Source: Ginglymostoma cirratum
Lineage: Eukaryota
DNA length: 64,000 nt
Reading direction: 5' to 3'
Assembly: GCA_024137785.1 (NCBI GenBank)
Contig: JAHRHZ010000031.1
Location: forward strand, 8,307,582-8,371,581
The notes beneath the pieces were generated by a model. It made no database searches. It was given only the letters and a program-made list of their open reading frames with translations, and was not told the DNA's origin. Within the stretch, counting starts at the first letter, position 1; each line of letters opens with the position of its first letter. The position numbers and the translations under genes are program-made. This document shows positions 6,297-58,413 of this stretch, one piece after another.

Positions 6297-6496
6297 GATA
6301 TAACAAGGTGTAGAGCTGGATGAACACAGCAGGCCAAGCAGCATCAGAGGAGCAAGAAAGCTGACGTTTCGGGTCTGGACCCTTCTTCAGAAATGGGGGG
6401 GAGGGGAAGGAGATTCTGAAATAAATAGAGAGGGGGAGGTGGATGGAAGAAGGATAAAGGAGCTGATAGGTGGAGAGGAGACAGGCAGTTTTCTGA
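6297..6496 (-). mobile_element. Penelope-like terminal insertion (family A), single arm
   Basis: Matches the left arm of 47984-48190. Exact 10-bp TSD gtattcatgt at 6287-6296 and 6497-6506. Confidence 0.85.
6363..6390 (-). ncRNA. Minimal hammerhead ribozyme core (family A)
   Basis: Minus strand reads CTGAAGA-A-GGGT-CCAG-ACCC-GAAA-CG-TC: intact catalytic boxes, perfect stem II, palindromic ACGT stem III. Stem I is weak (2 bp). Confidence 0.6.
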
Positions 6497-7220
6497 GTAT
6501 TCATGTAATGGTTCTATGCCTACTGGCCGAAAGGTAACCAACTTTGAATCTTGTAAAAACCCTTCTAATTCATTAAAATATTTTTGGCAAAGGAAATCTT
6601 CCACCCTTATCTAGTCTGGTACCTGACAGGAACACTTAAGTATAGTTGCTCACTGGTATTATTTCGAAGGGTGGCCAGACTGAAGGCCCATTGTGTTGGC
6701 CATGAAAACCTAAGTTGTACTGAGAGCATTCCATGATTGTGAATCACTTACTGGTTTTTGATGAAAAGTTAGTTATATCAGCTTCACCATGGAATGTATC
6801 TGAGGTAACATACATGAGGGGCACTTAGGGATCAGCAAGTCCAGAGCCAGGATTTGGTCTTCAGTGTTGTAGTGAGGAATAGAATAGAACAGAACATCCT
6901 TCATTGTCATGTGTATTCAAGTACGGGATCTCAAATGAGATTGAGGACCTTGTAACAGATTGTGAAATTTGAGCTTGAGCAGTGACTTTGAGTAATAAAA
7001 CATCACCACAGTTGTAGGTTTTAGGATCTTACATGAACCATTTACCTAATGTGGTCATGTCAGATAATAAATCACAGTTTTCTGAGGCTTTCAGCCATTT
7101 TTTAGCATTTCTGGTATTTAACATCGAAATAGCTTCCCAATGTATCCACAGTGAAATGGAGAAGCTGAGTGTGGGGTTCAGGTGTTCAAGTTCTTTGAGA
7201 AGAAAAATGATAACTTTTGT

Positions 7221-7523
7221 GGGTGGCACAGTGGTTAGCACTGCTGCCTCACAGTACCAAGGACCCAGGTTCGATTCCAGCCTCGGGCGACTGTCAGTGT
7301 GGAGTTTGTAGGTTCTCCCCGTGTCTGCATGGGTTTCCTTCGGGTGCTCCCACAGTCCAAAGATGTGCAGGCTAGGTGGATTGGCCGTGGTAAATTGCCC
7401 GTAGTGTTCAGGGAGGTGTGGATTAGGTGGATATAGGGGGATGGGTCTGGGTGGGATGCTGTGAGGTTCGGTGTGGACTTGTTGGGCCAAAGGGCCTGTT
7501 TCCACACTGTAGGGATTCTATGA
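7221..7523 (+). mobile_element. HE1-type V-SINE
   Basis: tRNA-like head gtggttagcactgctgcctcacag...ggttcgattcc, V-domain gtgtggagtttg...ttctccccgtgtctgc, CR1-like tail ccacactgtagggattctatg. Confidence 0.9.
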
Positions 7524-7674
7524 TGTGGAGTTCCATGATGTTACTGATCCACCCCAGTCCAATATGGCTTATCACCATCAAAGTTGCTAAGGGGCATAAA
7601 ATTGAAGACTCAACGCCCTGTCCTAAACAGAAAAGTTGATTCCACAGTTAAATCCATGGGTCTACAACAATGTA

Positions 7675-9040
7675 CAGGGGTTTTGCTTTAACACAAGTTC
7701 TGACAATGCAAATTGGCTATAACATGATTGACAAATAGAGGATCGCTATTTCTAAAACGCAAACTTGTGTTGGCTTTAAGGCGATTCCATCGGTGGCCTT
7801 ATTGTTGATGTTTTGGAAGATGTTTATAGAAAGTAGTACAGGATAAAAAAAACTGGATTTCAAGATTGTCTTCATTGTGGAAAATGCGCCAAGCCATCCT
7901 CACACCATTGGTGAGATTTTTGAAATCATCAAAGTGCTATTTCTACCCCCAAACACAATCCCTCTCCTTCAACCCATGGACCAGGGTGCAATAGCAGCTT
8001 TTAAAGCTTTTTATTTAAAGCACACTTTTAAGAGGCTGAATGCAGTCACTGAGGGGGATAAGGACAGTGTTCTTCAATTTTGGAAGAGCTTTAATATCAA
8101 GAATGCCATTGACGATATCGTGGAAGCCTGGGAAGATGTCAGTAAGGACTGCTTACATGCAGTTTGGTGGCAGCTTCTCCCAGATTTTTTTCAAGATTTT
8201 AAAGGCTTCGATCCGTCAGAGGAGATCCCAAGAATCAAAGACATTGCATTGATCTTACAAAGCAATTTGAATTTGAAGAAGTGGAGAGTGAGGATGTTGA
8301 AGAGCTGCTCGAGTCCCACTGTGAAGACCTCTCAACAGCTGACCTACAAAAACTTGTTGCTGAGGGGGAAGTGGAAGCCGAAGGTGTAGATGATGAAGTA
8401 CACGAGAGCTTTCCATTCTATTTTGTCTTCTATCCTGAGAGAAGTTGAGAAGCAGTGGTAGCTCTTAGAGGACAACTATTACAATGCAGAATGCAGCAGC
8501 ATAGCAGTTTGTGGAATGAGATCTTATTTGGCACCCTCTGAACAGCTTCATCATGAAAGAAGGAAAAGGGCAAAGCAGCAAAAACTGGATGTCTTTTTTA
8601 AGCCAAACTCCAAGAAACAGTCAGAAGATGATGAACCACAGCTATCCCCTTCTGGATTGACAATTTTTCACCCTAACCCTGCAACCACAACTGCACCTGA
8701 AGGTGATGATGATGATGATAATGATGATCCTTCGCTCCTGCATTAACAACAGAGCAACCTCAAAACCTCCTCCTCCATCAAGTTATCTTGATTTTTTTTC
8801 AAGATAAGGTGTTAAATTTGCTTTTATTTCATTATTAGATACAAATTAAACATTTGTTCAAACTGTGCTGTCCTTTGTGTTAGGTTTTTGAGTGATTTTT
8901 GAGCAATTTTGAGTGATTTTGTTTTTGGTGGTCTGCCCCTAACCCAACTTTTCCCATAGACCCCTTTATTTCTACAGCATGATTTTCTATAACGCGATAT
9001 TGTGCAGGAAGACAACGATTGCATTTTAGCAAAACCCCCA
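7675..9040 (+). mobile_element. Tigger/pogo DNA transposon, internally deleted
   Basis: TIRs caggggttttgct (7675) and agcaaaaccccca (ending 9040), each flanked by TA (7673-7674 and 9041-9042). Contains a DDE_1 transposase remnant. Confidence 0.85.
7850..8746 (+). pseudogene. Tigger/pogo (CENP-B-like DDE_1) transposase C-terminal half, frameshifted
   Basis: FKIVFIVENAPSHP...VLFLPPNTIPLLQPMDQGAIAAFK...AWEDV. After a frameshift near 8250 it continues EEVESEDVEELLESH...QQKLDVFFK. No N-terminal HTH domains, and the DNA-P aspartate reads as Glu. Confidence 0.85.
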
Positions 9041-12279: not shown

Positions 12280-12960
12280 GGATAACATTCAAACTTGGGC
12301 TGATAAGTGGCAAGGAACATTCAGTGAATCACTGAATGAGGATTACTATTGACCAGAAACTGCACTGAGCCAACTACGTAAATCCTATGGTGACGAAAGC
12401 GGGTCACAGGCAAGGAATTGTGCAGTGAGTAACTCATCATATGTCTTCCAAAAGCCTAAGATAAACAAGTCAGGAATGGATATTCTCCACATGAGTGCAG
12501 TTCCTACAACACTTAAGAAACTTGACATAACATTGGATAAAACAAACTTCTTGATTCACATCCCATTCACCATGCTTATCACTCACTCCCTTCACTGCCA
12601 CTAATGCACAGTGGCAGCATTGTGGACCTCCATGAAGATGCACTGAACCAATTCACCAAGGTTTCTCCAAAAGCAGCTTCCAAATCCATGACCATGACCA
12701 TCCAGAAAGACAAGGGCAGCATATGCATGGCAACAGATGCAAGTTCCCCTCTGAGCCACACACCATCCTGACTTGACACAACTCCATCTTTTACAAATTT
12801 GGGTCAAAGTCCTGGAAATCCCTGCCTAATATCTTTGTGGGTGCAGCTACATCACAAGGACTGCAGCAGTTTAAGACTTCAGCTCACCATAGCCTTCTCC
12901 AGGGTAATTAAGAATGGGCAATAAATGCTGGACTTGTCAGAAATGTCCACATCTCTATAA
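12280..12960 (+). mobile_element. 3' portion of the LINE family at 1512-3566
   Basis: cttgggctgataagtggcaag (W-A-D-K-W-Q-like motif) through ggactgcagcagtttaag...gggcaataaatgctgg. This is the reverse complement of the 1512-2370 segment. Confidence 0.8.
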
Positions 12961-12992
12961 GGAATACTTTTAAAAAATGGAAGATCAGCCCT

Positions 12993-13445
12993 TTATCACG
13001 AAATGTGACCAGCAGTGTGCCACAAGGATTCGTACTGTGTCCATTGCTTTTCGTCTTTCGTGTAGATGATTTGGATGTGAACATAGGAGATATGGTTCGT
13101 AAGTTTGCAGATGACACCAAAATTGGAGGTGTAGTGGGCAGTGAAGAAAGTCAACTCAGAGTAAAATGGGACCTTGATCGGATGAGCCAATGGGCCGAGA
13201 GTGGCAGATGGAGTTTAATGTAGATAAATATGAAACGCTGCAGTTTGGAAAGGCAAATCAGGGCAGGACTTTTACACTTAATGGTAAGGTCCTGGGGAGT
13301 GTTGCAGAACAATGAGATCTTGGAGTGCAGGCTCATAGTTCCTTGAAAGTGGAGACACAGGAAGATAAGACCGTGAAGAAGGCATTTAGTATGCTTGCTT
13401 TTATTGGTCAATGCATTGAGTGTAGGAATTGGGAGGTCATCTTGC
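12993..13445 (+). mobile_element. CR1 (HER1-like) RT fragment
   Basis: ORF 13005: TSSVPQGFVLCPLLF...DDLD...KFADDTKIGG, the RT catalytic motif. Confidence 0.9.
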
Positions 13446-13449
13446 AACC

Positions 13450-17526: not shown

Positions 17527-17817
17527 AGAATCATACAAATCCTACAGTGTGGAAGCAGACAATTCAGCCTATTGAGTCCACACTGACCCTCCAATCCTAA
17601 CCCACCCCATAAGCCTACAGGCAACTTAGCACGGTCAATCCACCTAACCTGTGCATTTTTGCACCATGGGAGGAAACCAGAGTACCTTGAGGAATCCCAC
17701 ACTGACACAGGGAGAATGTGCAAACTCCACAGAGACAGTCACCCAAGGGTGGAATTGAACCTAGGTCTCCGGCATCGTGAGGCAACTGTGCTCATCACTG
17801 AGCCACCATACTGCTCC
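17527..17817 (-). mobile_element. HE1-type V-SINE
   Basis: Reverse complement of the 7221 element (gggagaatgtgcaaactccac...ggaattgaacc...cactgagccacc). Confidence 0.9.
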
Positions 17818-18019: not shown

Positions 18020-18270
18020 TAATTCAGAGGGTGTAGATGTGGCTGGCTGGGACAGCATTTGTCGTCCATCCCTAGTTGCCTTGAGAAGATGGTAGTGAGC
18101 TGCCTTCTTGAACTGCTGCAGTCCATTTGGTGTAGGTACACCCATAATACTGTTAGGGAGGGAATTCCACAATCTTGAACAAACAACACTGAAGTAATGG
18201 CAATATATTCCCAAGTCAGGGTGGTGAGAAACTTGGAGGAGAACTTGTAGGTGGCAATGTTCCAAGACAT
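18020..18270 (-). mobile_element. 3' end of the LINE family at 1512-3566
   Basis: WNSLPNSIMGVPTPNGLQQFKKAAHYHLLK in ORF 17795-18337. Matches 1540-1750. Confidence 0.85.
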
Positions 18271-18877
18271 ACTTTGATGCACAATTGGTCATACATCTGT
18301 TTAAGAACCTTCTCCAGGGTTTAGATTGTCTTAACATCGCCTAGATTGGTCATCTGATTTGAGGAAACCTATATCTCCATGTGGACGGAAAAGAACCTAC
18401 AAACAGACCACTGGAAGCCACGTCCGGTGCCAGCATCCAAGTAGAGGCAAAACAAGGTGAATGGTCTTCAATGATTGAAAACAACTGCAAAAGGTACGAC
18501 TGACCCTGATTGACTTCCTCCTGATTATAGCTCCCTAAATATCTTGTCCTCGAGGACATTGATGAACATGTAAGGTGCTCTTTAAGCTAGGCTGGTGCCT
18601 GCAGCTTGCTAGCAATACCTTGACTACTCATGAACACCAATTTTGAGTGAGCTTCAAAGCTCTGGCCATTTTCAAGCCTGAAGGTATTCACTTCCTTATG
18701 CCCTCCTATCATACTCAAAAGTGAAATGATTGTCAGCAGTGTCAAGACATTTATAATGGGCGAGAGTTTATATCTCGAAAATATTCAAAATTTAACACCA
18801 ATTAGTACTCAACTCACATTGCGGTTTACCAAACTCGGAATGTCTTCACAGTTCCAGAAGGGGCATAGTTTCCGTCA

Positions 18878-20175: not shown

Positions 20176-20315
20176 ACCAAAAGAACTATGGATGCTGTAA
20201 ATCAGAAACAAGAACTAAAGTTGCTGGAAAAGCTCAGCAGGTCTAGCAGCATCTGTGATGAGAAGTCAGAGTTAATGTATCAGGTCTGGTTATCCTTCCT
20301 CAGTTCTGTTTTTGC
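20176..20315 (-). mobile_element. Penelope-like terminal insertion (family B) with a 12-nt inverted stub
   Basis: Reverse complement of 50080-50170. TSD tcagactttgcaaaa (20161-20175) and ttagattttgcaaaa (20316-20330). The stub ttctgtttttgc (20304-20315) is inverted to the arm start. Confidence 0.8.
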
Positions 20316-20392: not shown

Positions 20393-21368
20393 CAAAGAAC
20401 AAAGAACAAAGAAAATTACGGCACAGGAACAGGCCCTTCGGCCCTCCAAGCCTGCGCCGATCCAGATCCTCTATCTAAACCTGTCGCCTATTCTTCAAGG
20501 ATCTGTATCCCTCTGCTCCCTGCCCATTCATGTATCTGTCTAGATACATCTTAAATGATGCTATCGTGCCCGCCTCTACCACCTCCACTGGCAACATGTT
20601 CCAGGCACCCACCACCCTCTGCGTAAAGAACTTTCCACGCATATCTCCCTTAAACTTTTCCCCTCTCACCTTGAAATCGTGACCCCTAGTAATTGTGTCC
20701 CCGACTCTGGGAAAAAAGCTTCTTGCTATCCACCCTGTCTATACCTCTCATGATTTTGTAGACCTCAATCAGGTCCCCCCCTCAACCTCTGTCTTTCTAA
20801 TGTAAATAATCCTAATCTACTCAACCTCTCTTCATAGCTAGCGCCCTCCATACCAGGCAACATCCTGGTAAACCTCCTCTGCACCCTTTCTAAAGCATCC
20901 AAATCCTTTTGGTAATTTGGCGACCAGAACTGTACACAGTATTCTAAATGTGGTCAAACCAAAGTCCTATACAACTGTAACATGACCTGCCAACTCTTGT
21001 CCTCAATACCCCATCCGATGAAGGAAAGCATGCCGTATGCCTTCTTGACCACTCTATCGACCTGCGTTGCCACCTTCAGGGTACAATGGACCTGAACACC
21101 CAGATCTCTCTTGTGCATCAATTTTCCCCAGGGCTTTTCCATTTACCGTATAGTTCGCTCTTGAATTGGATCTTCCAAAATGCATCGCCTCGCATTTGCC
21201 TGGATTGAACTCCATCTGCCATTTCTCCGCCCAACTCTCCAATCTATCTATATTCTGCTGCATTCTCCGACAGTCCCCTTCACTATCTGCTACTCCACCA
21301 ATCTTAGTGTCATCTGCAAACTTGCTAATCAGATCATCTATACCTTCCTCCAGATCATTTATGTATAT
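20393..21368 (-). mobile_element. Comparatively young 5'-truncated CR1 (HER1-like) LINE
   Basis: FADDTKI (21300-21320), WAEKWQMEFNPGKCE, RDLGVQVH, LYRTLV and FFTQRVVGAWNMLP motifs. (GTTCTTT)n 3' tail at 20394-20413. Confidence 0.95.
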
Positions 21369-21401
21369 GCCAGCAGAATGGAGAACAACAGCAAGACTGT
21401 C

Positions 21402-22756
21402 TGTTGTTAGCAGTGCTTCTATGGTGATGAGGGCATTAATTTAAGCGTACAGAGGTGCACATTTGTGAGAATGACGGCATGAAAGCCCAAGCACGAGGCC
21501 ATGGTACAAAACAAAAACAAGTCAGTGTGGCCAGATGAGTTGGGAGCTGAGAAGGTTTCAGCTAAGATGCTGTCATAGAATGCCTACAGAGTAGGAAGTA
21601 TTTGGCCCAGTGAGTGCAGACTGACCCACCAAAATGCATCCCACGCAGATCCACCCTTCTACCCTCTGCCCGAATCCTGCATTTCTCATGGCTAATCCAC
21701 CTATCTTGAGCATCCCTATAGTATGGCCAGTCTACCTAACCTGCACATCTTTGGGTGCTTATCTTTAGATCCAAATGTAGCTCGGGCTGAGTCATGCCCA
21801 AATGGAGCTGAAGAGGTGGAAGGCAGCTGCCAGCTTCATGCCATTGACAGCTCCATACTGTTTGAAAATTGGTGTCTATTGAAGCTGTTGTTAGCAGCTC
21901 AGCTGGGAGTTTGGGCACAAAATGCCCATGGGACTTAGTGACAGCTCAGTGGAGCTGTCCTGGTTGTCTATTCCATGGAGCTGGAGAAGGAATCTCTCAG
22001 TAAACTTGAGTGAAGCTGTCTACTCAGTGTCACTAGAAAGCTGCGTTCATGCTGGTGTTTTGATGCTAAAGGGTAACCTTATAAAGCCAGTAAAAGACAA
22101 TCTCAGGCGAAGGAATTGAGTAGCTGGGAGGACAGTAATTGTTGGCAGCAACGTGATGGAGGATCTGGGATTACACCCATGTTTAGATGCTGGAGAGTAG
22201 CTTGGGCAACACAGTGGGGTGCACCTAAAAACTAGATGAGGTCTACTGGAAACAAAAAACCAAGGAGGTGGAATCTTGCAGAAGATCAAAACAAGATTTG
22301 GAATGGTGTGCTTTTTGGTGAGAATTTTTGTGTACCTGTGGTACATAGGTGGAGTAGAGGCATTGTAGTCCAGGCAGCCGTCTAGCTCATTAAAGGACAG
22401 AAGCTGAACTCCCTGTTGAGGAAAACAGAATTATAATTTTGAGATTCACAATGATCACAGATATCTGACTGGATTGTTGAGAAAACTCCTGGGATCTGTT
22501 TCAGCTGTGTCTGTGACATGGTGTGAACTTTGTGGTTTGTGCTCAGCTGCAGTTTGCTTGTTAATTCACATTTACCACAAGTCAATTCTGGATGTTCAAG
22601 TATAAGATAGGAGTCTTTTTGGTTTATTAACTCATATTTCATAAAACTTATTTCTGTGATTTTATTTCTTTCACTTTTCTTCTGCTTTAGAACAAAGGAT
22701 CTAATTCGATACCTGTAACCTAACACATTTTGGGGTTCTTGTTTGTGATCATAACA
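21402..22756 (+). mobile_element. Possible LTR-like element interrupted by a SINE
   Basis: Starts TGTT and ends gtgatcataACA, the same terminus type as 11104. Non-coding. 5' boundary uncertain. Confidence 0.3.
21573..21754 (-). mobile_element. HE1 V-SINE 3' half
   Basis: catagaatgcctacag...ggctaatccacct...cctaacctgcacatctttgg. Confidence 0.8.
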
Positions 22757-24046: not shown

Positions 24047-24632
24047 CATAGAACATCGAACATAGAACTGTACAGCACTGGAATGGGCCCTTCAGCCCAC
24101 GATGTTGTGTCGAACATGGAGCCAAATTAAATGAATCCCTTCTGCCTGCCCTTGGGGTCCATGTCCCTCCATTTCTTGCATATTCTTGTGCTTATCAAAA
24201 AGTTCCTTAAATGTCCCTATCATATCTGCCTCCATCACCAGCCCTGGCAGTGTGTTCCAGCCTCCTATCAATCTCTGTGTAAAAAACTAGTCCCTTATAT
24301 CTCCTTTGAACTTTTCCCCTGGCACCTTAAATGTATGACCCCTCATATTACACAATTCAACTCTGGGAAAAAGATTCTGACCATCAACCTTATCTATTGA
24401 TCTCATTATTTTATAGACTTCTATGAAGTCTCCCCTCAGCCTCCGCCACACCAGAGAAAACAGCTCGAGTTTTTCTAGCCTCTCCTTATAGCTCATACCC
24501 TCTAATCCAGGTAGCATTCTGGTAAATCTGTTCTGCGCCCTCTCCAAAACCACCACATCCTTCTTGTAATGGAGTAACTGGAATTGAACACAATACTCCA
24601 AGTGGGGCCTAACCAAAGTCTTATAAAGCTGC
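24047..24632 (-). mobile_element. CR1 LINE 3' fragment
   Basis: ORF 24287-24652 [16 protein letters not shown]...[15 protein letters not shown]...RRLRGDFIEVYKIM. (GTTCTAT)-like tail at 24047-24068. Confidence 0.95.
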
Positions 24633-26658: not shown

Positions 26659-27275
26659 GAGAAAACAAGGTGTAGAGCTGGATGAACACAGCAGGCCAAG
26701 CAGCATCAGAGGAGCAGGAAGGCTGACGTTTCGGGCCTGNNNNNNNNNNNNNNNNNNNNNNNNNNNNNNNNNNNNNNNNNNNNNNNNNNNNNNNNNNNNN
26801 NNNNNNNNNNNNNNNNNNNNNNNNNNNNNNNNNNNNNNNNNNNNNNNNNNNNNNNNNNNNNNNNNNNNNNNNNNNNNNNNNNNNNNNNNNNNNNNNNNNN
26901 NNNNNNNNNNNNNNNNNNNNNNNNNNNNNNNNNNNNNNNNNNNNNNNNNNNNNNNNNNNNNNNNNNNNNNNNNNNNNNNNNNNNNNNNNNNNNNNNNNNN
27001 NNNNNNNNNNNNNNNNNNNNNNNNNNNNNNNNNNNNNNNNNNNNNNNNNNNNNNNNNNNNNNNNNNNNNNNNNNNNNNNNNNNNNNNNNNNNNNNNNNNN
27101 NNNNNNNNNNNNNNNNNNNNNNNNNNNNNNNNNNNNNNNTCCCCCATTTCTGAAGAAGGATCTAGGCCCAAAACGTCAGCCTTCCTCTCCTCTGATGCTG
27201 CTTGGCCTGCTGTGTTCATCCAGCTCAACACCATGTTATCTCAGATTCTCCAGCATCTCCAATTCTTGCTATCTC
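26659..27275. mobile_element. Penelope-like fold-back palindrome (family A) spanning an assembly gap
   Basis: Left arm 26659-26739 is the reverse complement of about 27164-27242. A 33-nt tail runs 27243-27275. Degenerate TSD tgatcaaa (26651) and taatcgaa (27276). Confidence 0.85.
26740..27139. other. Assembly gap, 400 N
   Basis: Run of N. Confidence 1.
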
Positions 27276-28974
27276 TAATCGAAGAGAAAGACAGGTTCAT
27301 GTTTCAGATTAGACATTTCGTCAGATTGACTGGTTGTGTGGTTCCAACGTTTTTCGTTCTTCGTTCTGAATTCCAGCATTCGCTGTGTGGAGGTTTTGTG
27401 TCTATTCAGCAGACAGGCTGGCTTCTACACCTCCCCCATTTAGGAAAAGGAAAGACAGATATCAGCACGTGTCTGAGATGTTTGGCCTGGACAGCAATAA
27501 GATGGATGTGAGTTGTTTCTTCTCACACGTTGAGGCCTATTTATCTAATCCCAGTGAGCATTTCAGATCACTGAGATAGAACAGTTAGCTACATGCTTTG
27601 TGACCCCGCTCAGGTAGGTTACAAACTCGCCCAATAGTGAAGAGCATAACATTAGTCATCAAATGTTGTCAGAAATGCTGTGAAGTGACAAGGATTCTCT
27701 ACAATTTAGAACTCATTCAGTTCAGTCACCACTGATACTATCAGTAATTCTGGGTTTTAAACAAGTTTATTATCTGCAGTTCTGATCTTCAACCAGCTAA
27801 CCTGCTTTAGCAGCTGGAAGAAATCTTTAATTGTCAGGGACAGATAAATATCAAAGTAATTTTCAGAAAAAAAACATTTATTTTCCTCTTAAATTGAAGC
27901 ATTTGACAAAGATAAGCCTACTCAAAACACCCATCAGCCCAAGCACACAAAGAAAAATGTCCAACCTAGTCCATACTTTCCTCACTACATCCAGACCATG
28001 ATTACAGGAAGGACAGAAAAATCTGGTGGCAGATCTAATGTGCCACTGAATTAAAGGTCTTCAAAATGGTCTTTCGGGAAATCAGAATCAATAAAGTTCA
28101 GCTCAAAAACTCCTGCTGAATAATGTTGAATTTTCTACAGAGGTTCATTATCAAACCCCATACATGAAACATCATTTCTTGGATCAATGCAACTTAATAA
28201 CAAGTAGGTGAATACAGTGAGTACCCACAATGACACTATTGCACAGTAGTATTGCAGCTACCAGTCTAATATCAGTAACACTTGGAACATTAATGTGAGC
28301 AGACAGCATCAAGCTCGACTGACCCATTCACACAACTTTGTTCTCTAGCCTCTGACAGCAAATGAGATTTCTAATAGGCAGATCGATTGGCACTTTTCTC
28401 ACATCAGGCAGGTTCAGCATTCCAGCAGAACGTTTTTCAAACTTACGGTTTGAAACATTAAGTTTGTTGCATCAGATACAATTCTGTTGCTTGTGTTTAA
28501 TATAAAGCCAAGCGGCACATTGTTTATTTTTCAAAGTTGCTTCAGACTGAGGGCAAAAGGCCAACTGGCACTGATTCAACAGCGTTCAGAAGACTCATCT
28601 CATATCTCAGTGCAAAATATTTTCATATCCAGTCAACTGCTGCTAGACTTTATTTCATATCACTTTACTCATGAAACAGTAAAATTGGAAAGAATGCAAT
28701 GCCTGTAACAGACTTAGATCCCTTCCCTACATTTTACTCTTCACAGATTGATTATAAAGCCAGTTACTTGATTTATCATTTAATATTTGAGCAGGGTATT
28801 TATTTTTAATACCTCATCCGAGCTTCCCAAATCCTGTCACATCTGCTTGGTATATAGAAATGAGCTCACTAGTTCTGCGTAACTATCGAAAAATACCCGC
28901 ACTTGAATGTCCAATCTGGGCTGGCTATCATATCATTGTTATATCATTGTGATATACTTATATTACTATAACTA

Positions 28975-34369: not shown

Positions 34370-34705
34370 GGGTAGCACAGTGGCTCAGTGGTTAGCACTG
34401 CTGCTTCAAAGTGCCAGACAGACCTGGGTTCAGTTCCAGCATTGAGTGACTGTGTGGAGTTTGAACATTCTTCCTGCATCTGAGTGGGTTTCTTTTGGGT
34501 GCTCTGGTTTCTTCCCAGTCTAAAGATGCGCAGTTTAGGTGGATTGGCCATGCTAAATTGCCCATAGTTTGCAGAGTAGGTGGGTTAGCTGTGGGAAATG
34601 CAATGTTGTAGGGGTGTGGGTCTGGGTGGGATGCTTGTCAGAGTGTTGGTGTTGACTTGATGGGCTGAATGGCCTACTCCCACACTGTAGGGATTCTATG
34701 ATTCT
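34370..34705 (+). mobile_element. HE1-type V-SINE inside a decayed CR1 3' remnant
   Basis: gtggctcagtggttagcactgctgc head and cacactgtagggattctatg tail. Confidence 0.9.
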
Positions 34706-37469: not shown

Positions 37470-38063
37470 TTCTAACTGCAGCCTATTGGTGACTACGATG
37501 ACTCTATAAAACTCTGGTTAGACCACACTTGGAATATTGTGCTCAGTTCTGGTCACCTCATTACAGGAAAGATGTGGAAGCTTTACAGAGGGTGCAGAGG
37601 AGATTTACTAGGATGCTGCCTGGACTGGAGGACAGGTCTTATGAGGAAAGGTTGAGGGAGCTAGGACTTTTTTCATTGGAGTGAAAAAGGACGAGAGGTG
37701 ACTTGATAGAGGTTTACAAGATGATCAGAGGCATAGACAGAGTGGATAGAGAGAGACTTTTTCCCAGGGCGGAAATGACTATTACAAGGGGGCATAATTT
37801 TAAGGTGATTTGAGGATGCCATAGGGGAGATGTCAGAGGTAGGCTCTTCACACAGAGAATGGTGGGCGTGTGGAATGCGCTGCCAGCGGTGGTAGTGGAC
37901 TCAGATACTGTAGAGACTTTTAAATGACTCTTGGATAGGCACATGGAGGATAGTAAAATGTGGGGTATACAGGGTAGATTGACCTTAGGATAATAGGTTG
38001 CCACAACAGTGTGGGCCGAAGGGCCTGTACTGTGTTGTACTGTTCTGTGTTCTGTGTTCTATG
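37470..38063 (+). mobile_element. CR1 (HER1-like) 3' fragment
   Basis: ctctataaaactctggttagaccacacttggaatattgt encodes [13 protein letters not shown]. (TGTTCTG/A)n tail at 38041-38063. Confidence 0.95.
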
Positions 38064-39164
38064 ACCTTGGCGGGCATCCTCAGGGCTTGAGCCTAGACGG
38101 TCCCTTAAGCTGAGGGTGTTCCTGCACATGTGCACCTTCCTTGAATGATCTTCTGGAGATCACTGGCAGAGGGAACATGGAGAGGCAGGCACTTCTGGAG
38201 TGCCTCTTCTCTGTTGGTGCCCGATGGCAATTTTCTACCTCATTTGAGGAGAAGGAGCACCTGGAGGGAGGTCAAACCACATCAATCCTTGCTTTCCTTA
38301 CTATTGATGCACTGCCTCCATAGCTAAAACAATGGATTACATGGTCAAGAACATAGCCAGCAGCATCTGAGTGTCCTGCTGAATCTGGGTCTATAAGGCA
38401 GCTGCCAGCCTTTCCATGGAAGCAGCCAAGCACTCACGTGCCAGGGTCTCAACAGTGGACAGCACTTGAATAGAGACCTTGGTACTCTAGTCCCACATCA
38501 ATGTGGCTGACAACAACCCTGAGGGCAATTAGGGCCAGTCAATAAATACTGGCCCAGCCCTTGATGCCCATATCCAGTGTACAAATAAAAATAAAGCCTA
38601 TACCCTAGTTGACTGAGTGCCTCTGACACTGCTGCTTGATGCTCCCCACCTGTCTTCCATATTGAACATAGCAAACAAAAAGTTATCGTTTGTTGGGTCT
38701 GAGCAGGATCCTTTTCTCCAGGAGTCCTCAGGCAGCCAGAGACCGTGAACATTGATTCGTCTGTGGGCTGTGGATCCAGGACCCAATGTGCTGACCAGAT
38801 TGTGACCACAACCTTAATCTAGATAGTGGGGCCACCAAGGTGAATGTTTCTGTGCTGCTGGAGGAGGCAGGGTCAGGGGTGCATCAACCTCAGCAGGTGG
38901 GCTGGAAGCTGAGATGGAGCTGTCTTCAGTGCAGAAGCACTTCCTCAGCACATACACTATGCCAGGTCATGTGCTGTCCCTACGAAATGATGAGGAATGC
39001 ATTATCTAAGCATTGGTAGAATATTGATAGCACAAAGTGGCTGGCACCCATTCAGTGCTCATATTCTATCTGATATTAAAGCTGGCACCGTTTGAATGAG
39101 GAATGGACCTGTGAGATCAGTGCGCAGTGGGTAGACAAGGTCACTTAAAGCCCTTATAGAATGT

Positions 39165-43760: not shown

Positions 43761-43970
43761 CATGATGTGGAGGTGCCGGTTTTGGACTGGGGTGGTCAAA
43801 GTCAGAAATCACATGACACCAGGTTATAGTCCAACAGGTTTATTTGAAATTACAAGCTTTCGGACTGCTGCTCCTTCATCAGGCGACATTCACCTGACAA
43901 AGGAACAGTGCTCTGAAAGTTTAGTGATTTTAAATAAACCTGTTTGGCTGTAACCTCGTGACTTATGATG
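43761..43970. mobile_element. Penelope-like fold-back palindrome (family C)
   Basis: aggttatagtccaacaggtttatttgaaattacaagctttc...tcagg is inverted against cctgac...gaaagtttagtgattttaaataaacctgtttggctgtaacct. TSD ttgaatggaaaa (43749-43760) and ttggatggaaaa (43971-43982). Confidence 0.85.
43854..43882 (-). ncRNA. Minimal hammerhead ribozyme core (family C)
   Basis: Minus strand reads CTGATGA-A-GGA-GCAGCAG-TCC-GAAA-GC-TT, with palindromic AGCT stem III. The other arm shows the stem I pair tcac/gtga. Confidence 0.6.
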
Positions 43971-45958
43971 TTGGATGGAAAAGACTGCAGGATGGAGGAG
44001 AAGCAAAATGTGAGTAAGGGAGTTGAAAGTGGATAGCTGAAGAGAAAGGGGAGAGAGAAAAGAAAATTATTTGGCATTGGATGCGCTATTGTTCAGGGTT
44101 GAAAGTGAAATTAAACCATGTGAATAACCCTGGGTTGAAAATGTTTGTGTTCCCTACTGTAACTTTAATAGACATATTCTAACCTTGGTCTATCTCAGAC
44201 TCTTCTTATCTCTGTCTGAATTCTAATTACCTTTTCCTTTCACGTTCGATGGACACATTTTAAATGGAAGATAACAAGTTTATCTGAACTGTCACAGAAG
44301 CATTATTCTATTATCTAAGTCAAGAATAGCCAAACTTTCATAGCTGCAGTGGTGATTGGAGGAACTGTAGCTGACAAGGAGCTGTTCCAACAGATCCCCA
44401 GAGGTCATGTCATTTTTATGTTGATCGTGCTTCATCTATGAAAGAATACTTCCAAGTGTCCTATATTATCATGGTAAATAATAATCTTACCATCATACTT
44501 TATTACTAAATGAAGTTTAACAAAATGCCAATAAGTCCTTTCACTAACTCAAATCCTGTAAGCAGTGAAAGTGCAGCAAAAGCAAGGCTGCGTAGTTCTC
44601 GAAAGAGTCGATCACTTTTTTTTAAAATCAGAAAACTCATCTTAAATGTATTTTGTCTAGACTTCCTTCACATATGAATAAGTCACTTTGCTGCAATTGT
44701 AATTCCTCACCCAGTAGCTGAACAGTTGATAGAAGATCACCAGAGATGCGACTGGCACACCCACAGTTTGTATAAGGACAGGATGGCAGGGAGGTTCTGA
44801 ATGTAATACCATTCAAATGAAAGTCTCTCAATTGGAAACTGATTCACTCTCCAGTTACAGTCGGACCCACTGACTATTTTCATTTTCTGTTTGTTTGTGG
44901 ACAACCCACAATAGCTAAAGTTTCCGAGAGGATGCTTCTCACTTCCTAATGTTCCTTTTGTCACTCCTCACTGTTGTCTCAACTTAATCAGCTAGGGCCC
45001 ACAACACATCACAATAGCAGTAACTTAGTCATTGAAGAGTCACACTTCAAGATATTCGAATGCTTACACCTCAGAAGTGTCATGGCGAGTTCAGCACGAA
45101 AAGGTGTGTGCTGTCTTTCCACATCCAAATTTTATTATCGAGTTGCTAAGCTTGTGTTTCTCTTCCTTCTCAAGGAGTGTTTCCCTCGCATGAGATCTGA
45201 CTATGTACCACTTTTGAGTTGCCTATGTGACAGTAAATCAATATCGTGCCCAAAGACTGACTTAAACGGAGAGCCAGGAATTTCCTAGGTGCTGTCCCAG
45301 CCTCCAATTTTGTAGCTTTAGATCAGACTATAGCAAAGCTATAATTGCAGATGTGGTGACTTTCACATGCACAGCCATTATCCACATAGACAAGATGGTA
45401 AATCCATAATGACCTGTGTGTGTTAGTCATGGAAATAAAAAAAAAAATTTGTGATGCACAAGGATATAGACAAAGTGCTGTACCATGAAGTGCTGCAATA
45501 TTAGTACATCTGTTTCTAAGAACCCTCATTTCAACGTTCTGTCAATTCAAGCATCCCAACTGAATCAATGCTGGATTTATCACAGTACAGTTCCAGATCA
45601 CATGTATGATTCCCATGTCAGCCATGTACCCTTCACTGGCAATGCTCTATCTGATAAAAAAAATACCTTGCAAACATTGTCCCAGACGTCATCAATATCC
45701 CCACAATATTTTTTTGTTCCTGCAGTAGAACAGTCTGACCAGTCTGCTGGCACAGTGGGACACTGTTGGGAGTAGTCCTGGGACCTTCAAGATTGATTCC
45801 AAACTCCATGGGGTCTCATGGCATCAGTCAAACATAGACATGGAAACCTCCTGTTGGTTATCAGCATTCCATTCAGTGCTATTTCATGTTGAAATCACTT
45901 AGAAGAAACACTGAGGATAGCAAAAACACAAATGTACTCTGCATGGAGTTTTTTAATA

Positions 45959-46264
45959 TCATAGAATCCCTACAGTGTGGAAACAGGCCCTTCAGCCCAA
46001 CAAGTACACACTGACCCCCAGAGCATTCCACCCAGACCAATCCCCCTAATCTACACCTCCCTGAACACTACAGACAATTTAGCATGGCCAATCCACCTAA
46101 CCTACACATCTTTGGAGTGTGGGAGGAAACCAGAGCATCCAGAGGAAACCACACAGACACAGGGAGAATGTGCAAACTCCACACAGTCACCCAAGGGTGG
46201 AATTGAACCCAGGTCCCTGGTGCTGTGAGGCAGCAGTGCTAACCACTGAGCCACCATGCCACCC
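45959..46264 (-). mobile_element. HE1-type V-SINE, full length
   Basis: catagaatccctacagtgtgg...gagaatgtgcaaactccac...gcagcagtgctaaccactgagccacc. Confidence 0.95.
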
Positions 46265-47524: not shown

Positions 47525-47983
47525 ACTATTACTTGCGTGAAATGATAAATTCAGAATAGATTTGGCAGCTGAAAACTGGGCATTCAGGTGAGTCATCAGC
47601 CGTAGCAGAATTATATTCACTCACAATTTGTAAGCCTGTACCCTGGCATATTCCCTACTCTGCCATTACCTTCAAGGTAAGGAATCACTCCTGGTTCAGT
47701 GAGAAGTGTTGGAGAGCATGCCAAGAGTATCATCAGGCAAATAGAAAAATGAGCTATTCGCAAGGTGAAGTTAATTGATAGAAATACAATCTTGATAAAC
47801 TACACAAGCACCATTATAGCATTATTAGCAATTCCACAACCAATGGATCCAATCAGAGATTTCCAATCAGATTATTGTGATATGGTGCCTGCAATGGGAA
47901 GGAGGGGCTCCATGAATTTCTGATCTAGAAATGATAGCAGAATCCATCACGTCAGCGCAAAAAGCGATGTTGAAATGTTTACA

Positions 47984-48447
47984 GAGATACCAAGGTGTAC
48001 AGCTGGACGAACACAGCAGGCCAAGCAGCATCAGAGGAGCAGGAAGGCTGATGTTGCGGGCCTAGACCTTTCTTCAGAAATGGGGGAGGGGAAGGGGGTT
48101 CTGAAATAAATAGAGAGAGAGGGGGAGGCGGATAGAAGATGGATAGAGGAAAAAATGGGTGGAGAGGAGACAGACAGGTCAAAGAGGTGGAGATGGAGCC
48201 AGTAAAGGCACCGCCTCTTAGACCTGTCTGTCTCCTCTCCACCCATTTTTTCCTCTATCCATCTTCTATCTGCCTCCCCCTCTCTCCCTATTTATTTCAG
48301 AACCCCCTTCCCCTCTCCCATTTCTGAAGAAGGGTCTAGGCCCGCAACGTCAGCCTTCCTGCTCCTCTGATGCTGCTTGGCCTGCTGTTTTCATCCAGCT
48401 CTACCTTGGTATCTCAGATTTTCCAGCATCTGCAGTTCCTACTATCT
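47984..48447. mobile_element. Penelope-like fold-back palindrome (family A), complete
   Basis: Arms 47984-48190 and 48211-48415, a 20-nt spacer, and a 32-nt tail at 48416-48447. Exact 14-bp TSD ttgaaatgtttaca at 47970-47983 and 48448-48461. Confidence 0.95.
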
Positions 48448-49164
48448 TTGAAATGTTTACAACCATTTTCAGACAAAGTGTCAAGTAAATGATCAATGCT
48501 GATCTCCTCCTACATCCCAGCATCACAGATTCAATTTAATTCACCTCACGTGATATCAAGAAAAGACTGAAGATCCTGGATTCAGGAAAGGTTCCTGATA
48601 ATAGAGTGGTTGGCTTGCTGAAGACTTGTGCTCTAGAACTAGCTATGCCTTTAATCAAACTGTTCCAATGCAGTGATTATTATTTACGTGACATGTGGAA
48701 ACTTCCTGAGGTATGTCTGGTCCACAGAAAGCATAGACAAATTGAATCTGGATAATTATTGCCCAAATCCACTCTCACGTATCAGAAGGGATATAAATTT
48801 TCTCAAATGGCATTTACACAACAACTTCCAGCCCACCAATGCTTAGTGTGGGCTACAATCCTCAATGCTGCCTTCATCCAAACAGAACAACGGAGCTAAT
48901 TCCAGATGCGAGGTTATAATGAATGTCTTTGACATCCAGGTAGCATTTGATTGAGTGTGGCACCAAGGAACAATAGCAAAACTGGAGGTAACTCTTTGCT
49001 TAATAGAGCCATACTGAACACAAAGTTGACAACAACTTTCAGACGACTTGTTGAAATACTTAGTCCATAGATCACTGGAGGACATTTTAGTAGCTATTTC
49101 AATATCACTTAGCAATACTGTTGTTTTTCATTTTGCTTGCAATCTGCAAGCACATTTACAAAAT

Positions 49165-49781: not shown

Positions 49782-49838
49782 AAAAATTAACTTTTTTTTA
49801 TTTTTTAAATTTTTTTATTTTTTTTATATTTTTTTATT
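49782..49838. repeat. T-rich low-complexity tract
   Basis: (TTTTTTA)n-like run. Confidence 0.8.
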
Positions 49839-50005: not shown

Positions 50006-50170
50006 GAGCATCTGTGAAGAAAAAATCAGAGTTAATGTTTCGGGTCCGGTGACCCTTCCTCAGAACCTGACCTGAAACGTTAACTCTGATTTTTTTCCTC
50101 ACAGATGCTGAGCTTTTCCAGCAATTTCTGTTTTTGTTCCTGATTTACAGCATCCGCAGTTCTTTTGGTT
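50006..50170. mobile_element. Penelope-like fold-back palindrome (family B)
   Basis: agcatctgtgaagaaaaaatcagagttaatgtttcgggtc is inverted against gacctgaaacgttaactctgatttttttcctcacagatgct. Exact 10-bp TSD tcatcacctt at 49996-50005 and 50171-50180. Confidence 0.9.
50031..50066 (-). ncRNA. Minimal hammerhead ribozyme core (family B), one CpG-type change in stem III
   Basis: Minus strand reads GTT-CTGAGGA-A-GGGTC-ACCG-GACCC-GAAA-CA-TT-AAC. Stem I is GTT/AAC and stem II has 5 bp. The other arm retains GAAACGTT (50074-50081). Confidence 0.55.
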
Positions 50171-50204
50171 TCATCACCTTTAGTGTCTAGACAATGTGAT
50201 GAAC

Positions 50205-51132: not shown

Positions 51133-51470
51133 TATAGTATCATAGAATCCCACGAGTGTGGAACACAGCCATTCAACCCAATGAGCCTTCACTGACCCTC
51201 CTACCAGCATTCCAAACAGATCCCTACCATATCCCCAGGACTTATCATTTATTGTGGCTACAGATCCCTTGACATGACACATAATTAAGCATGGCCAATC
51301 CACCTAACCATCACATCTTTGGACTGTGGGAGGAAACCAGAACACACAGAGGAAACCTATGCAGACACAAGGAAAAATGTGCAAACTCCACACAGACAGT
51401 CACCCAAGACTGGTAGTGAACCTGAGACCCTGGAGCTGTGAGGCAGCAGTGCTAACCACTGAGCCACTGT
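51133..51470 (-). mobile_element. HE1-type V-SINE inside an L2 remnant (about 50950-51990)
   Basis: catagaatccc...atgtgcaaactccacacagacagtcaccc...gtgctaaccactgagccac. Confidence 0.9.
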
Positions 51471-51997: not shown

Positions 51998-52211
51998 AGA
52001 ATAGAATCAGATAATCCCTACAGTGTGGAAAGAGATCATTCAGCCCATCCAATCTGCACTGACCCTCCAAACAGCATCGCACCCAGACCTAGCTCCTACA
52101 CCCACTCCCTGTAATCCTGCATTTCCCATGGCTAATCAACCTAGCTTGCAATCCTTGGATAGTACAGGACAATGTGGCATAGCCAATCCACCTAGAATGC
52201 ACATCTTTGGA
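51998..52211 (-). mobile_element. HE1 V-SINE 3' half
   Basis: aatccctacagtgtggaa...gccaatccaccta...gcacatctttgga. Confidence 0.85.
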
Positions 52212-53389
52212 TTGATCTTCCTCTTCTTGACTCACAAACAGTGCTGTAATTATATTTACTTCATTAATTTGCCCTTTCTTGTTTTCTTTTATCTTCTAGG
52301 ATTATCAAGCCACCTGAAAAATTATCTTCATGGTTGAAACTAAAAGCCCCGTTATAATGGTATGCTACCTCTTCAAAGTATTTTACTGACCAACTCACTT
52401 TCTGCCAGTTGATAAGTCACTTACCATCACTTATATCAAGACCAGAAGGTGGGTTGGGGAGTGGGTTGTGCCTGGAGGTTTCAATCCATCCCTAGAGTGT
52501 CAAAACTTGCCTGACAATCCCCCAACATATAAAACAGCTGATCTTAATCAAATTCATCACTTTAAGCTTTGCAAAGTCTTGCGAAAGACTGTAGCATTTC
52601 CCTAATTCTCTCTCTCTCTCCTAATGCTTATGTTCCTTCCATTGTTAGCCACATCACTTATTGGTTTGGGGGTTCGCCAGCTATTTCCACCCATTCTACT
52701 CTAATGGACTAGGAAGTCCTCAGGCGTAATGTTCAACTTCCTCATGTATAAATAGGAAGTAATTTAAGCCAAATGCTGCAGATTTAATGGGAGAATATTG
52801 GGTCAGCCACAAACTGACAGCATGGACTATGACAGTGCAGAATTGAGGACATTATTTACTCTTGGGTCAGTAAATGTTGCTCTTTCAGAGAGGTCCAAAT
52901 GAGGACAGTTGGAACACCACAGGCTATAGTAAGAATCAGCCACTTACATCAATCACTGCTGGCCAAAAAAAAACGATGTAACAGGCTGTTTCCAAACAGC
53001 TGGGGTTAAATTTGGTGCTTATCCCAACAGTTAAGTGACTGCAAATTAAGGCTTCAGGGAGCCGCCAGTGTAAAATTACAACCCTTTCTTGTGGTAACCT
53101 GGAATGAATCCATTCACATTAGGCAATATTTCAAGAGTGTGGAGTAAGAAGCAAATCTGGAAAAGATGTTGTGAGCCACAAGCTCGAGACCAGTATGCTT
53201 TCCACAAAGGCAAACACAGAACTGATGTTTGCTTAAGACATCTCGCAAGCTCTGTAATCATCAGTGATATGGTGGGCAATATAATTCAAAAGTTATATAT
53301 TCAGCAATGTCTACTTACTCCCTCCTGCAATTAAATTTGTTTTTGAATTGTTTAAAAGACATCATTTTCCATGCTGCGACTATATTTAC

Positions 53390-53476: not shown

Positions 53477-54759
53477 CTACGCCACAACAGAAAGGAAAAC
53501 AGACAACAACACAAAGGGAAACTTCAACATAATTTATACACAACCCCATAGAAAAGCTGAAAATATATAGGTTTTCTCTAATAACTTTGCAGTATTGATG
53601 GTAGAAAACCTTCAGCATCTCACTGGACAGTAATAAGCAAGGTTTTAGACCTGATTGAAGTGCAGTTTTGAAAGGATCTGGTTCTGCCTAGATCCCGGTC
53701 ATTGTGGAACCGAGTCACAGAGACAGGGAAAGTTGAAAGAAAGCCAATCATTTTAGCACAAATAAACCTATATTGTAACAAATCCATTAAATTATAATTT
53801 TCTTGATTCTAAATCTCACTTGTTTATCTCCAAGCTGTTTTTAATTATTCATACAGATGTCACTGAGCAGATCAGCATTATTGGCCATCTCTAGTGGAGC
53901 TTCAGAGTGTGGTGGCAAACTGCCTGAGTTGCTTGTGAGGACTTTTCATAGGGTAGAAGAGGCAATAGCATTACTGTGGTTCTGGAATAATTTGGCTAGA
54001 CTGCATGGCTAATTACTTAGCTAAAAGGGATAATTGCCTGGGTTTTTGTTTTGATCATTCCATAATGTTCCAATGGAGTTTGACCAAAGCTAAAGGAAAG
54101 CATGGACTTTTTAAATATGCATGTTACACCCTGGTACATCATGTTAAAACTGGTCTTCTCTAACTTCAGAATACAACCATTGTCACTGTTTTGTCTGAGA
54201 GCAGCTGGTGGCAATGATCCTGCTATTACAATTTTTGAATCCAATGGACCTATCTTCTGTTCATTTACTTGTTGCATTACCTTCTCCTTTTGCATTGTAC
54301 CAGGATCCTGTTTGTTAATAATTTAATATCAGTTGCTTTCCACCTTGTTACAGAACTTTCATTTCATCCGTCTACTGTCTTCAGCTTTTCCTCTCTCAGT
54401 TCATGTCCAAAACGTGTTACTTCTGAGTTCCAACAAAAGGTCATTAACCTTTTGTCAACTCTGTTTCTCTCTGCACAGTTACCCTGCTGAGTATGTCAAG
54501 CATTTGCTGTTATATTACATAGTCACATTAGGGGGACATGACTATGCAATTGCACGGAAAAGGAGCAAAAAAGGGAATGAGAAAAGGAAATTAAATTAAA
54601 ATACATTAGATGATACAAGAAATGTAAAGCAAGAGTCTGATAGATTAAATTATTTATGTTTGTAATTGAACATACGTAAAGTTTAATCAGTGCATAATTA
54701 TAAGTAATCTGGTACTGCGTGGACTGGAGTGTAGAAAGTTATCTATTCAACATCAAATT

Positions 54760-56409: not shown

Positions 56410-56590
56410 ATGTATTCATTCACAACTTGAAGGCACCATTGGCTAGGCCAGCATTTATTGCCCATCCCTAATTTTCCCTGAGAAGATGATGGTGTGCCAC
56501 CTTCTTGAACTGCTGCATTCCATGTGCTGTAGGTACATCCACAATGCCATTAGGGAGAGATTTCCAGGATTTTGACTCAGTGACTGAAAG
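56410..56590 (-). mobile_element. 3' end of the LINE family at 1512-3566
   Basis: ggccagcatttattgcccatccctaatt...cttcttgaactgctgca...ttagggagagatttccaggattttgac. Confidence 0.85.
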
Positions 56591-56682
56591 ACAAAGTGAA
56601 ACTTCCCTTTACTTTTTATGCACCTATAGAAGACTTTTGATTCCCCTTTATCTTAGTCCGACCATAATTCAACTGACTTACA

Positions 56683-56807
56683 CAAACAAAAATAAAATAC
56701 TGTAGATGCTGGAAATCACAAATAAAATCAGTTCCAAAGAAAAGCATTAACGCTTTCTCTCTCCACAGATGCTGCAAGACCTGCTGAGCTTCTACAGTAC
56801 TTTTTGT
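56683..56807. mobile_element. Old Penelope-like terminal insertion
   Basis: aaaatactgtagatgctggaaatc tail, then the inverted arm ctctccacagatgctgc...cctgctgag. Degenerate TSD ttcaactgacttaca (56668) and ttcaacaacttaca (56808). Confidence 0.65.
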
Positions 56808-56834
56808 TTCAACAACTTACATCAACTCGAGGAA

Positions 56835-57420
56835 TTAAGAAAGTTCATGAGGTCATTCAGCCCCTCCAGCCTCTTCTGCTATTCAGTTAGATCATGATTC
56901 ATCTGTAAATTAGTTCCATCTACTCACCATAGTTGCGTCACCTTTCACATTCTTGCCTAACAAAAACCCATCTCAGTTTTAAAGTTTTCAATTCCACCCT
57001 AGGCCTTAGCAGCACTATGAAGGAACAGAGATCTAGATTTCAACTGCACCTTGTTTTGAACTTTCTGAACTAACCCCAATATAGCCTAGCTATAATTTTA
57101 AGATTAATGTTCAGTTGTTTTGGACTCTCCAGCAGAGGAAACAGTTTCCCTTCACTTATCCTATCAAACCTGTTAGTAATTTAGATCACCTCCTTCATCA
57201 TTCTCAAGGAAATTTGAGCTTAGTCTCTGCAATCTCTATGCAACTTGAGCTTAGCATTGATACTTTTCTGGGTCTTTCTGCACCTCCTCCAAGACCAATA
57301 TATCCCTTCTGAAATGCAGTGCAGAACAAGGGCTCTGTATAGCTGTGACATAACTTCTATTTCTTTGTATTCTGGTCAACTTGTGATAAAGGTGAATATT
57401 CCATTAACCTTTTAAATTAT
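56835..57420 (-). mobile_element. Decayed CR1 3' fragment
   Basis: ggtcattcagcccctccagcct 3' UTR and ctgcacctcctccaagaccaatatatcc (D-L-LE-VQ on the minus strand). Confidence 0.65.
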
Positions 57421-58192
57421 CTTCTTTTATAATTCTATTGATGGAATCCTTCACCTTCCTGATCCATGCAGCTTAATATCAGAGTAGTGCAACAGGAGGG
57501 AACTGTAATAAGCAGTCTTTTGGGGGAAAGAACACCTATTAACTGATAAAATAACAAGCCTTAAATCAAAACAAAGCTGTAACATGACTTTTGCATTGTA
57601 GCTACACTTTGAGAATTGAATAAGAAATTGGGACCAAACTTGTCCTTGAATCTTGCTCTTTATTCCTGACGGTGTGAACCAGAAAATAGGTGTGTTTATA
57701 TGTAATTACCTGCAACAAATGAGGAATTTTTATAAATAGAGAGCCTGTAGAGTTAATACATGCAATCCTCCAGAGTTACACAAAGAAATCATTGTGAATT
57801 TAATATGTGTTTACTAGTTTTTGAAAATATTTTTCATTCTTTATATATAATACTCTAGGGGCCTCTGGAGAAGGTGAAACAGAGCTCAAAGACTGCAGGA
57901 AGCCTGCTTTTTTTTAATGGGAACTCAACTATAACAGCCACTTAAGCAATCAGGACACTTTAACAATTGGTTTGTGTTCAATTTGACCTTGCCCAACTCT
58001 TTTCCTGTTAATTGCCAAACCCATTAAAAGTCAACTTTTATGGCCTTCCTTTAAGTTCGAAGAAAAATTCTATCTGGAATTGAATGCATAGATTTACAAC
58101 AGGCAAACAGGCCTGAGACAAATTTATGCCCCATACAAGCATCTTCCAACCTTCCACCCTTACCTCTTCTAACCTGTCCAGCATATCCTTCT

Positions 58193-58413
58193 GAGACAAC
58201 AAGGTGTACAGTTGGATGAACACAGCACGCCAAGCAGCATCAGAGGAGCAGAAAAGCTGATGTTTCGGGTCTGGACCCTTCTCCAGAAACTTAAAAGGGT
58301 CCAGACCTGAAATGTCAGCTTTTCTGCTCCTCTGATGCTGCTTGGCCTGCTGTGTTCATCCAGCTCTACACCTTGTTATCTCAGATTCTCCAGCATCGGC
58401 AGTTCCTACTATC
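58193..58413. mobile_element. Penelope-like fold-back palindrome (family A), short form
   Basis: Arms 58193-58280 and 58295-58382, a 14-nt spacer, and a 31-nt tail. Exact 15-bp TSD ccagcatatccttct at 58178-58192 and 58414-58428. Confidence 0.95.

Follow-up and report, generated by a model that had tools for sequence, protein, structure and literature searches.

Hammerhead-Bearing Insertions in the Window

The window considered here is a 64,000-nucleotide stretch of the Ginglymostoma cirratum genome (NCBI GenBank assembly GCA_024137785.1, contig JAHRHZ010000031.1, positions 8,307,582 to 8,371,581 of the forward strand), and all positions given below are positions in the window. Scattered through it are short insertions related to minimal hammerhead ribozymes of the kind carried by Penelope-like elements (PLEs). 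An earlier reading of the letters alone (the sequence-only reading) had sorted these into three distinct families, A, B and C, and had put their density at about one copy per 7 kb. Delimitation by self-comparison of the window and by profile searches yields ten insertions, or one per 6.4 kb, in line with that estimate. Three weak profile matches (E about 0.2) at 27281–27325 (−), 54454–54510 (+) and 38347–38371 were excluded from the count; the first two are possible older hammerhead-bearing remnants, and that at 27281–27325, which adjoins the insertion A2 described below, retains CUGACGA-A...GAAA.

The division into three families has to be revised. The alignment of A with B runs from the core through the end of the tail (nhmmer E 6.7e-9 for B1 against the A copy at 58194–58413), and the two are therefore assigned to a single lineage, A/B. 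Only C stands apart: it has just the ribozyme, i.e., core, stem II and palindrome, in common with A/B, and by this comparison represents a second, independent lineage.

Structure of the Hammerhead Cores

The three motifs A, B and C can be read out letter for letter where the sequence-only reading had placed them, all on the minus strand. The A1 core (6363–6390, reading 6390→6363) is CUGAAGA-A-GGGU[CCAG]ACCC-GAAA-CG-UC, with intact boxes and ACGU palindrome, a stem II of 4 bp and a stem I of 2 bp; cleavage is predicted from its sequence after GUC (6363). The C1 core (43854–43882, reading 43882→43854) is CUGAUGA-A-GGA[GCAGCAG]UCC-GAAA-GC-UU, with intact boxes and AGCU palindrome, a stem II of 3 bp and a stem I of 2 bp, and predicted cleavage after CUU (43854). 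The B1 core (50031–50066, reading 50063→50031) is CUGAGGA-A-GGGUC[ACCG]GACCC-GAAA-CA-UU, also with intact boxes; it has the best stems of the three (stem II of 5 bp, stem I of 4 bp), yet its palindrome is broken to ACAU by a CpG-type change, and the tailed sister arm retains ACGU.

The CUGANGA and GAAA boxes thus occur together with an NUH cleavage triplet at three sites (A1, B1 and C1), and the remaining arms are decayed. An extra nucleotide separating position 9 from 10.1 and the G10.1–C11.1 pair are present at all three sites, and a loop-less palindromic stem III is seen in A1 (ACGU) and C1 (AGCU). Stem I is more variable. PLE minimal hammerheads typically have 3–5 bp here, as in B1, and 4 bp can be inferred for C from its other arms: the tcac/gtga stem I that had been proposed for C exists in two C arms (UCAC/GUGA), but not in the 43854 copy itself (UCGC/GUAA, 2 bp). 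The copies at 6363 and 43854, whose cores had been described as intact, do have intact core boxes, but with a stem I of just 2 bp each they are not supported as intact ribozymes.

Taken alone, a loose descriptor (exact boxes, stem II of at least 3 bp) does not reach significance: it matched four times, and 30 shuffles gave 1.13 matches on average and at most 4; the fourth match (48567+) is without other hammerhead features. A strict descriptor, derived from the published consensus (PMC4209133) but composed after the matches were already known, additionally requires the extra nucleotide, the G10.1–C11.1 pair, NUH and a stem I of at least 2 bp. It found three sites (6390, 43882 and 50063) in the 64 kb and none in 1000 block-wise dinucleotide shuffles. 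When the palindrome was also required, two sites (6390 and 43882) were left, again with none in 1000 shuffles.

Anatomy of the Insertions

Six of the ten insertions (A2, A3, A4, B1, B3 and C1) are head-to-head pairs of arms with their 3′ ends outward, and in each pair one arm extends further in the 3′ direction (by eye for B3). The offset between the arms measures about 35 nt in A; it amounts to about 50 nt in C, and B1 has a larger one. In A2 (26665–27275), a short arm at 26665–26739 (−) and a tailed arm at 27140–27275 (+), whose core is broken by G12→A, flank a gap of 400 N. A3 (47984–48447) has a short arm (−, C3 at 48077) and a tailed arm (+, C3 at 48324) that are 95.9% alike and both carry GCAA for GAAA. 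In A4 (58194–58413), the short arm (−, C3 at 58286) has CUGGAGA and ACAU, and the tailed arm (+) begins within the first box. B1 (50009–50170) combines a very short arm at 50009–50069 (−) with a tailed arm at 50064–50170 (+), which begins in stem II. B3 (56688–56814) is a degenerate pair of the A/B lineage with its core lost. C1 (43761–43967) consists of a long arm at 43761–43890 (−) and a short arm at 43885–43967 (+) with a decayed core (C3 at 43894).

The other four insertions are single arms, all on the minus strand: A1 (6300–6496), which is 5′-truncated, tailless and pyrimidine-rich in its 5′ part; an old A/B-lineage arm with a decayed core (5990–6090); B2 (20176–20315), a tailed arm with a broken core (GAUA), whose 5′ end may carry an inverted stub of 12 nt; and C2 (1786–1911), a long arm with a decayed core that sits within another repeat.

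Target-site duplications (TSDs) of 13–16 bp flank most of the insertions. They are exact at A3 (47970–47983/48448–48461, 14 bp) and A4 (58178–58193/58414–58429, 16 bp), and contain one mismatch at A1 (6287–6299/6497–6509, 13 bp) and B1 (49996–50008/50171–50183, 13 bp), and two at A2 (26651–26664/27276–27289, 14 bp), B2 (20161–20175/20316–20330, 15 bp) and C1 (43746–43760/43968–43982, 15 bp). Scores of at least 11 were obtained at six of nine loci searched and at none of 297 random flank pairs (null maximum 10), the search windows being 35–60 nt and the null windows 40 nt, so not exactly matched. At the tenth locus (5990–6090), a 16-bp duplication with one mismatch (5974–5989/6091–6106) was found by eye. 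For C2, an empty site is available: a paralogue of the host repeat at 12620–12790 is without the insert and has the duplicated target once. A third row in this alignment (18150–18330) is poorly aligned and adds nothing.

The 5′ ends are variable. In two arms the start lies within the ribozyme, and in none does it coincide with the predicted cut site; all 12 arms of A1–A4, B1, B2, C1 and C2 reach 5′ of that site, and the template RNA would therefore have been uncleaved. Most A/B arms are 60–225 nt long, only short copies are present, and no head-to-tail tandem array of the element unit was found in the window. The copies look like truncation products rather than the defined units implied by the term 'mini-retroelements' in the sequence-only reading.

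In the A/B lineage, GAUGCUG following the core pairs over 7 bp with CAGCAUC in the tail (48352–48447 and other tailed A/B arms), in a pairing that spans the end of the short arm. This arm–tail pairing is common to A and B and is a candidate hairpin for the start of reverse transcription; compensatory changes were seen in none of its 14 pairs.

Conservation and Decay

Evidence for covarying stems, another claim of the sequence-only reading, is present but thin: one true compensatory swap separates the A/B and C lineages (C–G versus G–C at 15.2/16.2 in stem III), and the stem II sequences also differ. A core conserved beyond its flanks is not seen within family A. Among the seven A arms, non-CpG departures from the majority are 5/61 in the core versus 19/445 in the downstream flank (Fisher p 0.19), and CpG columns depart at 5/28 versus 34/626 elsewhere (p 0.02), the paired arms not being independent in either count. 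This pattern matches what would be predicted for neutral decay.

Comparison with Known Elements

Minimal hammerheads have been described in the pseudo-long terminal repeats (pLTRs) of metazoan PLEs (Cervera and De la Pena, 2014; PMC4209133). As characterized there, they have an extra nucleotide between 9 and 10.1, the G10.1–C11.1 pair and a palindromic 15.2–16.2, occur as dual motifs on opposite strands 100–700 bp apart, reach thousands of copies in coelacanth and Xenopus, and show low activity as dimers. The window copies resemble them in CUGANGA-H, stem II with G10.1–C11.1, GAAA, the loop-less palindromic 15.2/16.2 and a short stem I, as well as in being mostly solo or opposite-strand pairs, with several families in one genome. 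Fig. S3 of that paper contains CG as well as GC palindromes, as in A/B and C, and its Acropora Neptune row matches family A in the 4-bp stem II, the 4-nt loop and the CGUC-AGC 3′ side. The differences are that cartilaginous fish are not among the Fig. S3 rows examined, that stem I of family A is only 2 bp and that the window is without a full-length parent.

Head-to-head pairs, a tail of 30–40 bp on one arm and a TSD belong to the described structure of PLEs (PMC3846280, PMC8557442), and 5′ truncation, head-to-head pLTRs, a one-arm tail and a TSD are shared with endonuclease-positive (EN+) PLEs of the Neptune clade and with Poseidon_Ac of a lizard. The TSDs here are longer than in rotifer PLE examples (8–10 bp), and the arm offsets given above are a further point of difference. 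The Poseidon_Ac protein cuts and extends both DNA strands in vitro, reverse transcription has two internal start sites, which lie one genomic tail length apart, uncleaved RNA is used, and the hammerhead cleaves only with protein (PMC11167929). The arrangement of hammerheads at PLE ends is thus already known; the sequence-only reading recognized it correctly, and its kind is not new. A literature search found no paper describing these shark families, with Repbase, Dfam and Lunse et al. (2017) outside its coverage.

Parent Element and a Possible Link to Reverse Transcriptase

The only place in the window able to hide a PLE open reading frame (ORF) is the 400-N stretch at 26740–27139, the sole assembly gap, which lies between the A2 arms and may hide a longer element body. 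As an ORF start, an ATG 21 nt after the cut site was considered and rejected: it opens a frame in A, whereas in B a stop follows after about 16 codons. In public contig collections, four scans for the pattern (two metagenome, one prokaryote genome and one viral) yielded no matches. Homologous-protein searches with an arm translation (21 candidates) and with the protein P0003 introduced below (298 candidates) gave nothing; these are weak negatives.

A profile of translated A arms retrieved three proteins, P0001–P0003, all of them gene models of Rhincodon typus (whale shark) and without Pfam domains. By tblastn, all three run across family-A-like DNA, which in P0002 and P0003 includes an A4-like inverted pair. 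Ending in family-A-like repeat translations, the three models are likely annotation artefacts. The N-terminal part of P0003 looks like antisense PLE reverse transcriptase (RT): read from position 45 to 2, the residues encodable on the opposite strand fit the RT motif 6–7 row of Neptune1_Ap at 28 of 44 gap-free positions, with 7.6 expected (P 3e-12 for one comparison), as counted by eye against the best of the rows shown in the supplement alignment of PMC8557442. The FLD and KPTDS motifs are among the compatible positions. P0003 implies the order that is canonical for PLEs: first the inverted arm, next the tailed arm and last the RT, which lies on the strand of the tailed arm. P0003 provides a suggestive RT link for the A/B lineage, which is likely Neptune-type.

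Origin of the Insertions

The insertions are very probably 5′-truncated ends (pLTR fragments) of two EN+ Penelope-like retrotransposon lineages, produced by target-primed reverse transcription and decaying neutrally, because the strict motif, the variable 5′ ends, the head-to-head pairs with one longer 3′ end, the 13–16 bp TSDs, the empty site and the CpG-biased decay all point in this direction. The link to PLEs with minimal type I hammerheads made by the sequence-only reading is supported by how the insertions are built and, indirectly, by a single connection to RT. The parent would most likely be a tandem pLTR–ORF–pLTR element whose GIY-YIG/RT protein would make a staggered cut, giving rise to the 13–16 bp duplication. 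Both strands would prime cDNA on uncleaved RNA, at two internal start sites close to each other, and the two aborted cDNAs would become joined head to head, the tail being present in one arm and missing from the other; the Poseidon_Ac model would lead to such products. Self-priming on an antisense template has been put forward as an alternative source of head-to-head junctions (PMC3846280). Any role of the ribozyme would be confined to the full-length tandem parent, in which two copies on the same strand could pair via the 4-nt palindrome, likely with assistance from protein.

Several observations weigh against this explanation or parts of it. Stem I is only 2 bp (U–A, U·G) in all five A arms that hold it. 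No hammerhead family is among the 32 Rfam matches in the window at E≤5. Dimer energy minima of −26.2 (A/A) and −16.0 kcal/mol (C/C) contrast with scores of −1.3 and −2.3 kcal/mol for the corresponding double-hammerhead folds. The unequal windows of the TSD comparison count here too, as do the A2 duplication, whose score ties the null maximum, and the repeats at B3 and C2, which score below it (the B3 repeat is TSD-like). No ORF with RT and GIY-YIG was found in the window: Pfam searches of all 242 stop-free frames of at least 62 aa, which would miss shorter or frameshifted remnants, revealed no GIY-YIG, and the two weak RVT_1 matches are distant from the hammerhead insertions. Finally, the RT link consists of one gene model from another species, possibly spliced across unrelated insertions, and applies to A/B only, the retrieved proteins offering no such link for lineage C.

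A reading compatible with PLE ends, which differs on ribozyme function, is that the hammerhead of lineage A is vestigial, i.e., the boxes are kept by descent, the ribozyme has lost its fold and the element spreads independently of it. This is conceivable, if somewhat doubtful. The 2-bp stem I and the lack of excess core conservation in A speak for it, and insertion by the lizard element in vitro needs no cleavage, with no reads ending at the cut site (PMC11167929). The dead GCAA core shared by both A3 arms suggests that dead-core RNA was still copied, unless the arms were homogenized later by conversion. On the other side, A/B and C have nothing in common beyond core, stem II and palindrome, and 2-bp stems I occur in other PLE hammerheads listed in PMC4209133.

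It is quite improbable that the copies are defined non-autonomous ribozyme mini-elements (SINE-like, i.e., resembling short interspersed nuclear elements, or retrozyme monomers) that propagate as short units through transcription and cleavage. Such units would account for the short lengths of the copies, and pLTR-derived retrozyme monomers are reported in vertebrates, including one chondrichthyan (bioRxiv 2026.07.22.740005). These non-LTR retrozymes are, like the window copies, non-coding, pLTR-related and equipped with a type I hammerhead, but their units, each containing a ribozyme, follow one another head to tail in tandem, whereas the window has dispersed single arms or head-to-head pairs. 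The variable 5′ ends, with two inside the ribozyme and none at the cut site, and the lack of tandem units and of a tRNA gene in the searches of the window argue against them as well. A short non-autonomous donor for a subset of copies is conceivable. That the inverted pairs, six insertions that are TSD-flanked inverted repeats, are DNA transposons like miniature inverted-repeat transposable elements, with terminal inverted repeats and an incidental hammerhead match can practically be dismissed, as the arm ends are offset, the centres vary among copies, the TSD length ranges from 13 to 16 bp, single-arm insertions have their own TSD (A1 and the old copy at 5990–6090) and 1000 shuffles do not contain the strict motif.

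Predicted Dimerization of the Ribozymes

A loop-less stem III requires a second copy on the same strand, and an inverted pair is thus unable to dimerize in cis. The dispersed copies are likely inert, because the arms of a pair lie on opposite strands and the transcript would fold into a long hairpin. Energy evaluation of double-hammerhead folds built from real copies gave, besides the A/A and C/C scores above, −8.4 (B/B), −4.4 (A/B), +1.5 (B/C) and +4.0 kcal/mol (A/C). Every scored fold is much higher in energy than the dimer minima, which range from −15 to −27 kcal/mol; therefore, no double-hammerhead fold would be favoured unaided. On paper, the family-specific dimerization proposed by the sequence-only reading would hold for A versus C, exclusion of A/C dimers through ACGU and AGCU being structurally sound. 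In these models it does not hold for A and B, which are both of the ACGU lineage, and the B 5′ strand pairs over 5 bp with the A 3′ strand.

Other Features of the Window

MicroRNA-type Rfam matches at 48093–48308 and 58230–58345 are below gathering scores and reflect inverted pairs; the inverted pairs at 48005–48396 and 58230–58345, where such matches are strong though under the threshold, would form long double-stranded hairpins if transcribed. Of 24 sequencing runs listed, 20 contain part of 47900–48500, 7 of them at least half of its words, and no RNA run is listed as containing it, a count that bears no inference on expression, variation or distribution.

A DDE_1 transposase fragment lies at 7847–8386 (+; Pfam E 1.2e-16) and is presumably a remnant of a pogo/Tigger-type DNA transposon. 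Remnants of long interspersed nuclear elements, with weak Exo_endo_phos and RVT_1 matches and a repeated 400-bp family, are found at 2777–3145, 12912–13220, 21057–21440, 20550–20977, 24187–24631 and 37502–37943; they are likely of CR1/L2 type. A 300-bp repeat is present in at least six copies (7222–7524, 17530–17809, 34370–34705, 45954–46264, 51135–51470 and 52003–52214). It resembles a V-SINE-type element; ARAGORN detected no tRNA.

Significance for Penelope-Like Elements

As material, the window is of modest value: short PLE insertions are abundant in this shark-type genome, and their TSDs, tails and junctions can be read. Such insertions permit genome-scale tests of PLE integration and of selection on PLE hammerheads, and the ACGU and AGCU lineages are a natural control for dimer specificity. 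A bolder and rather unlikely proposal has two parts. The 4-nt palindrome would be a self-recognition code by which co-resident Penelope lineages with ACGU or AGCU cleave only with kin, A and B cross-activating each other, and twin-primed insertions whose arms derive from the two RT start sites would form a very large record in shark genomes. If this is true, counting such insertions would be a way to test the second-strand step of PLE integration.

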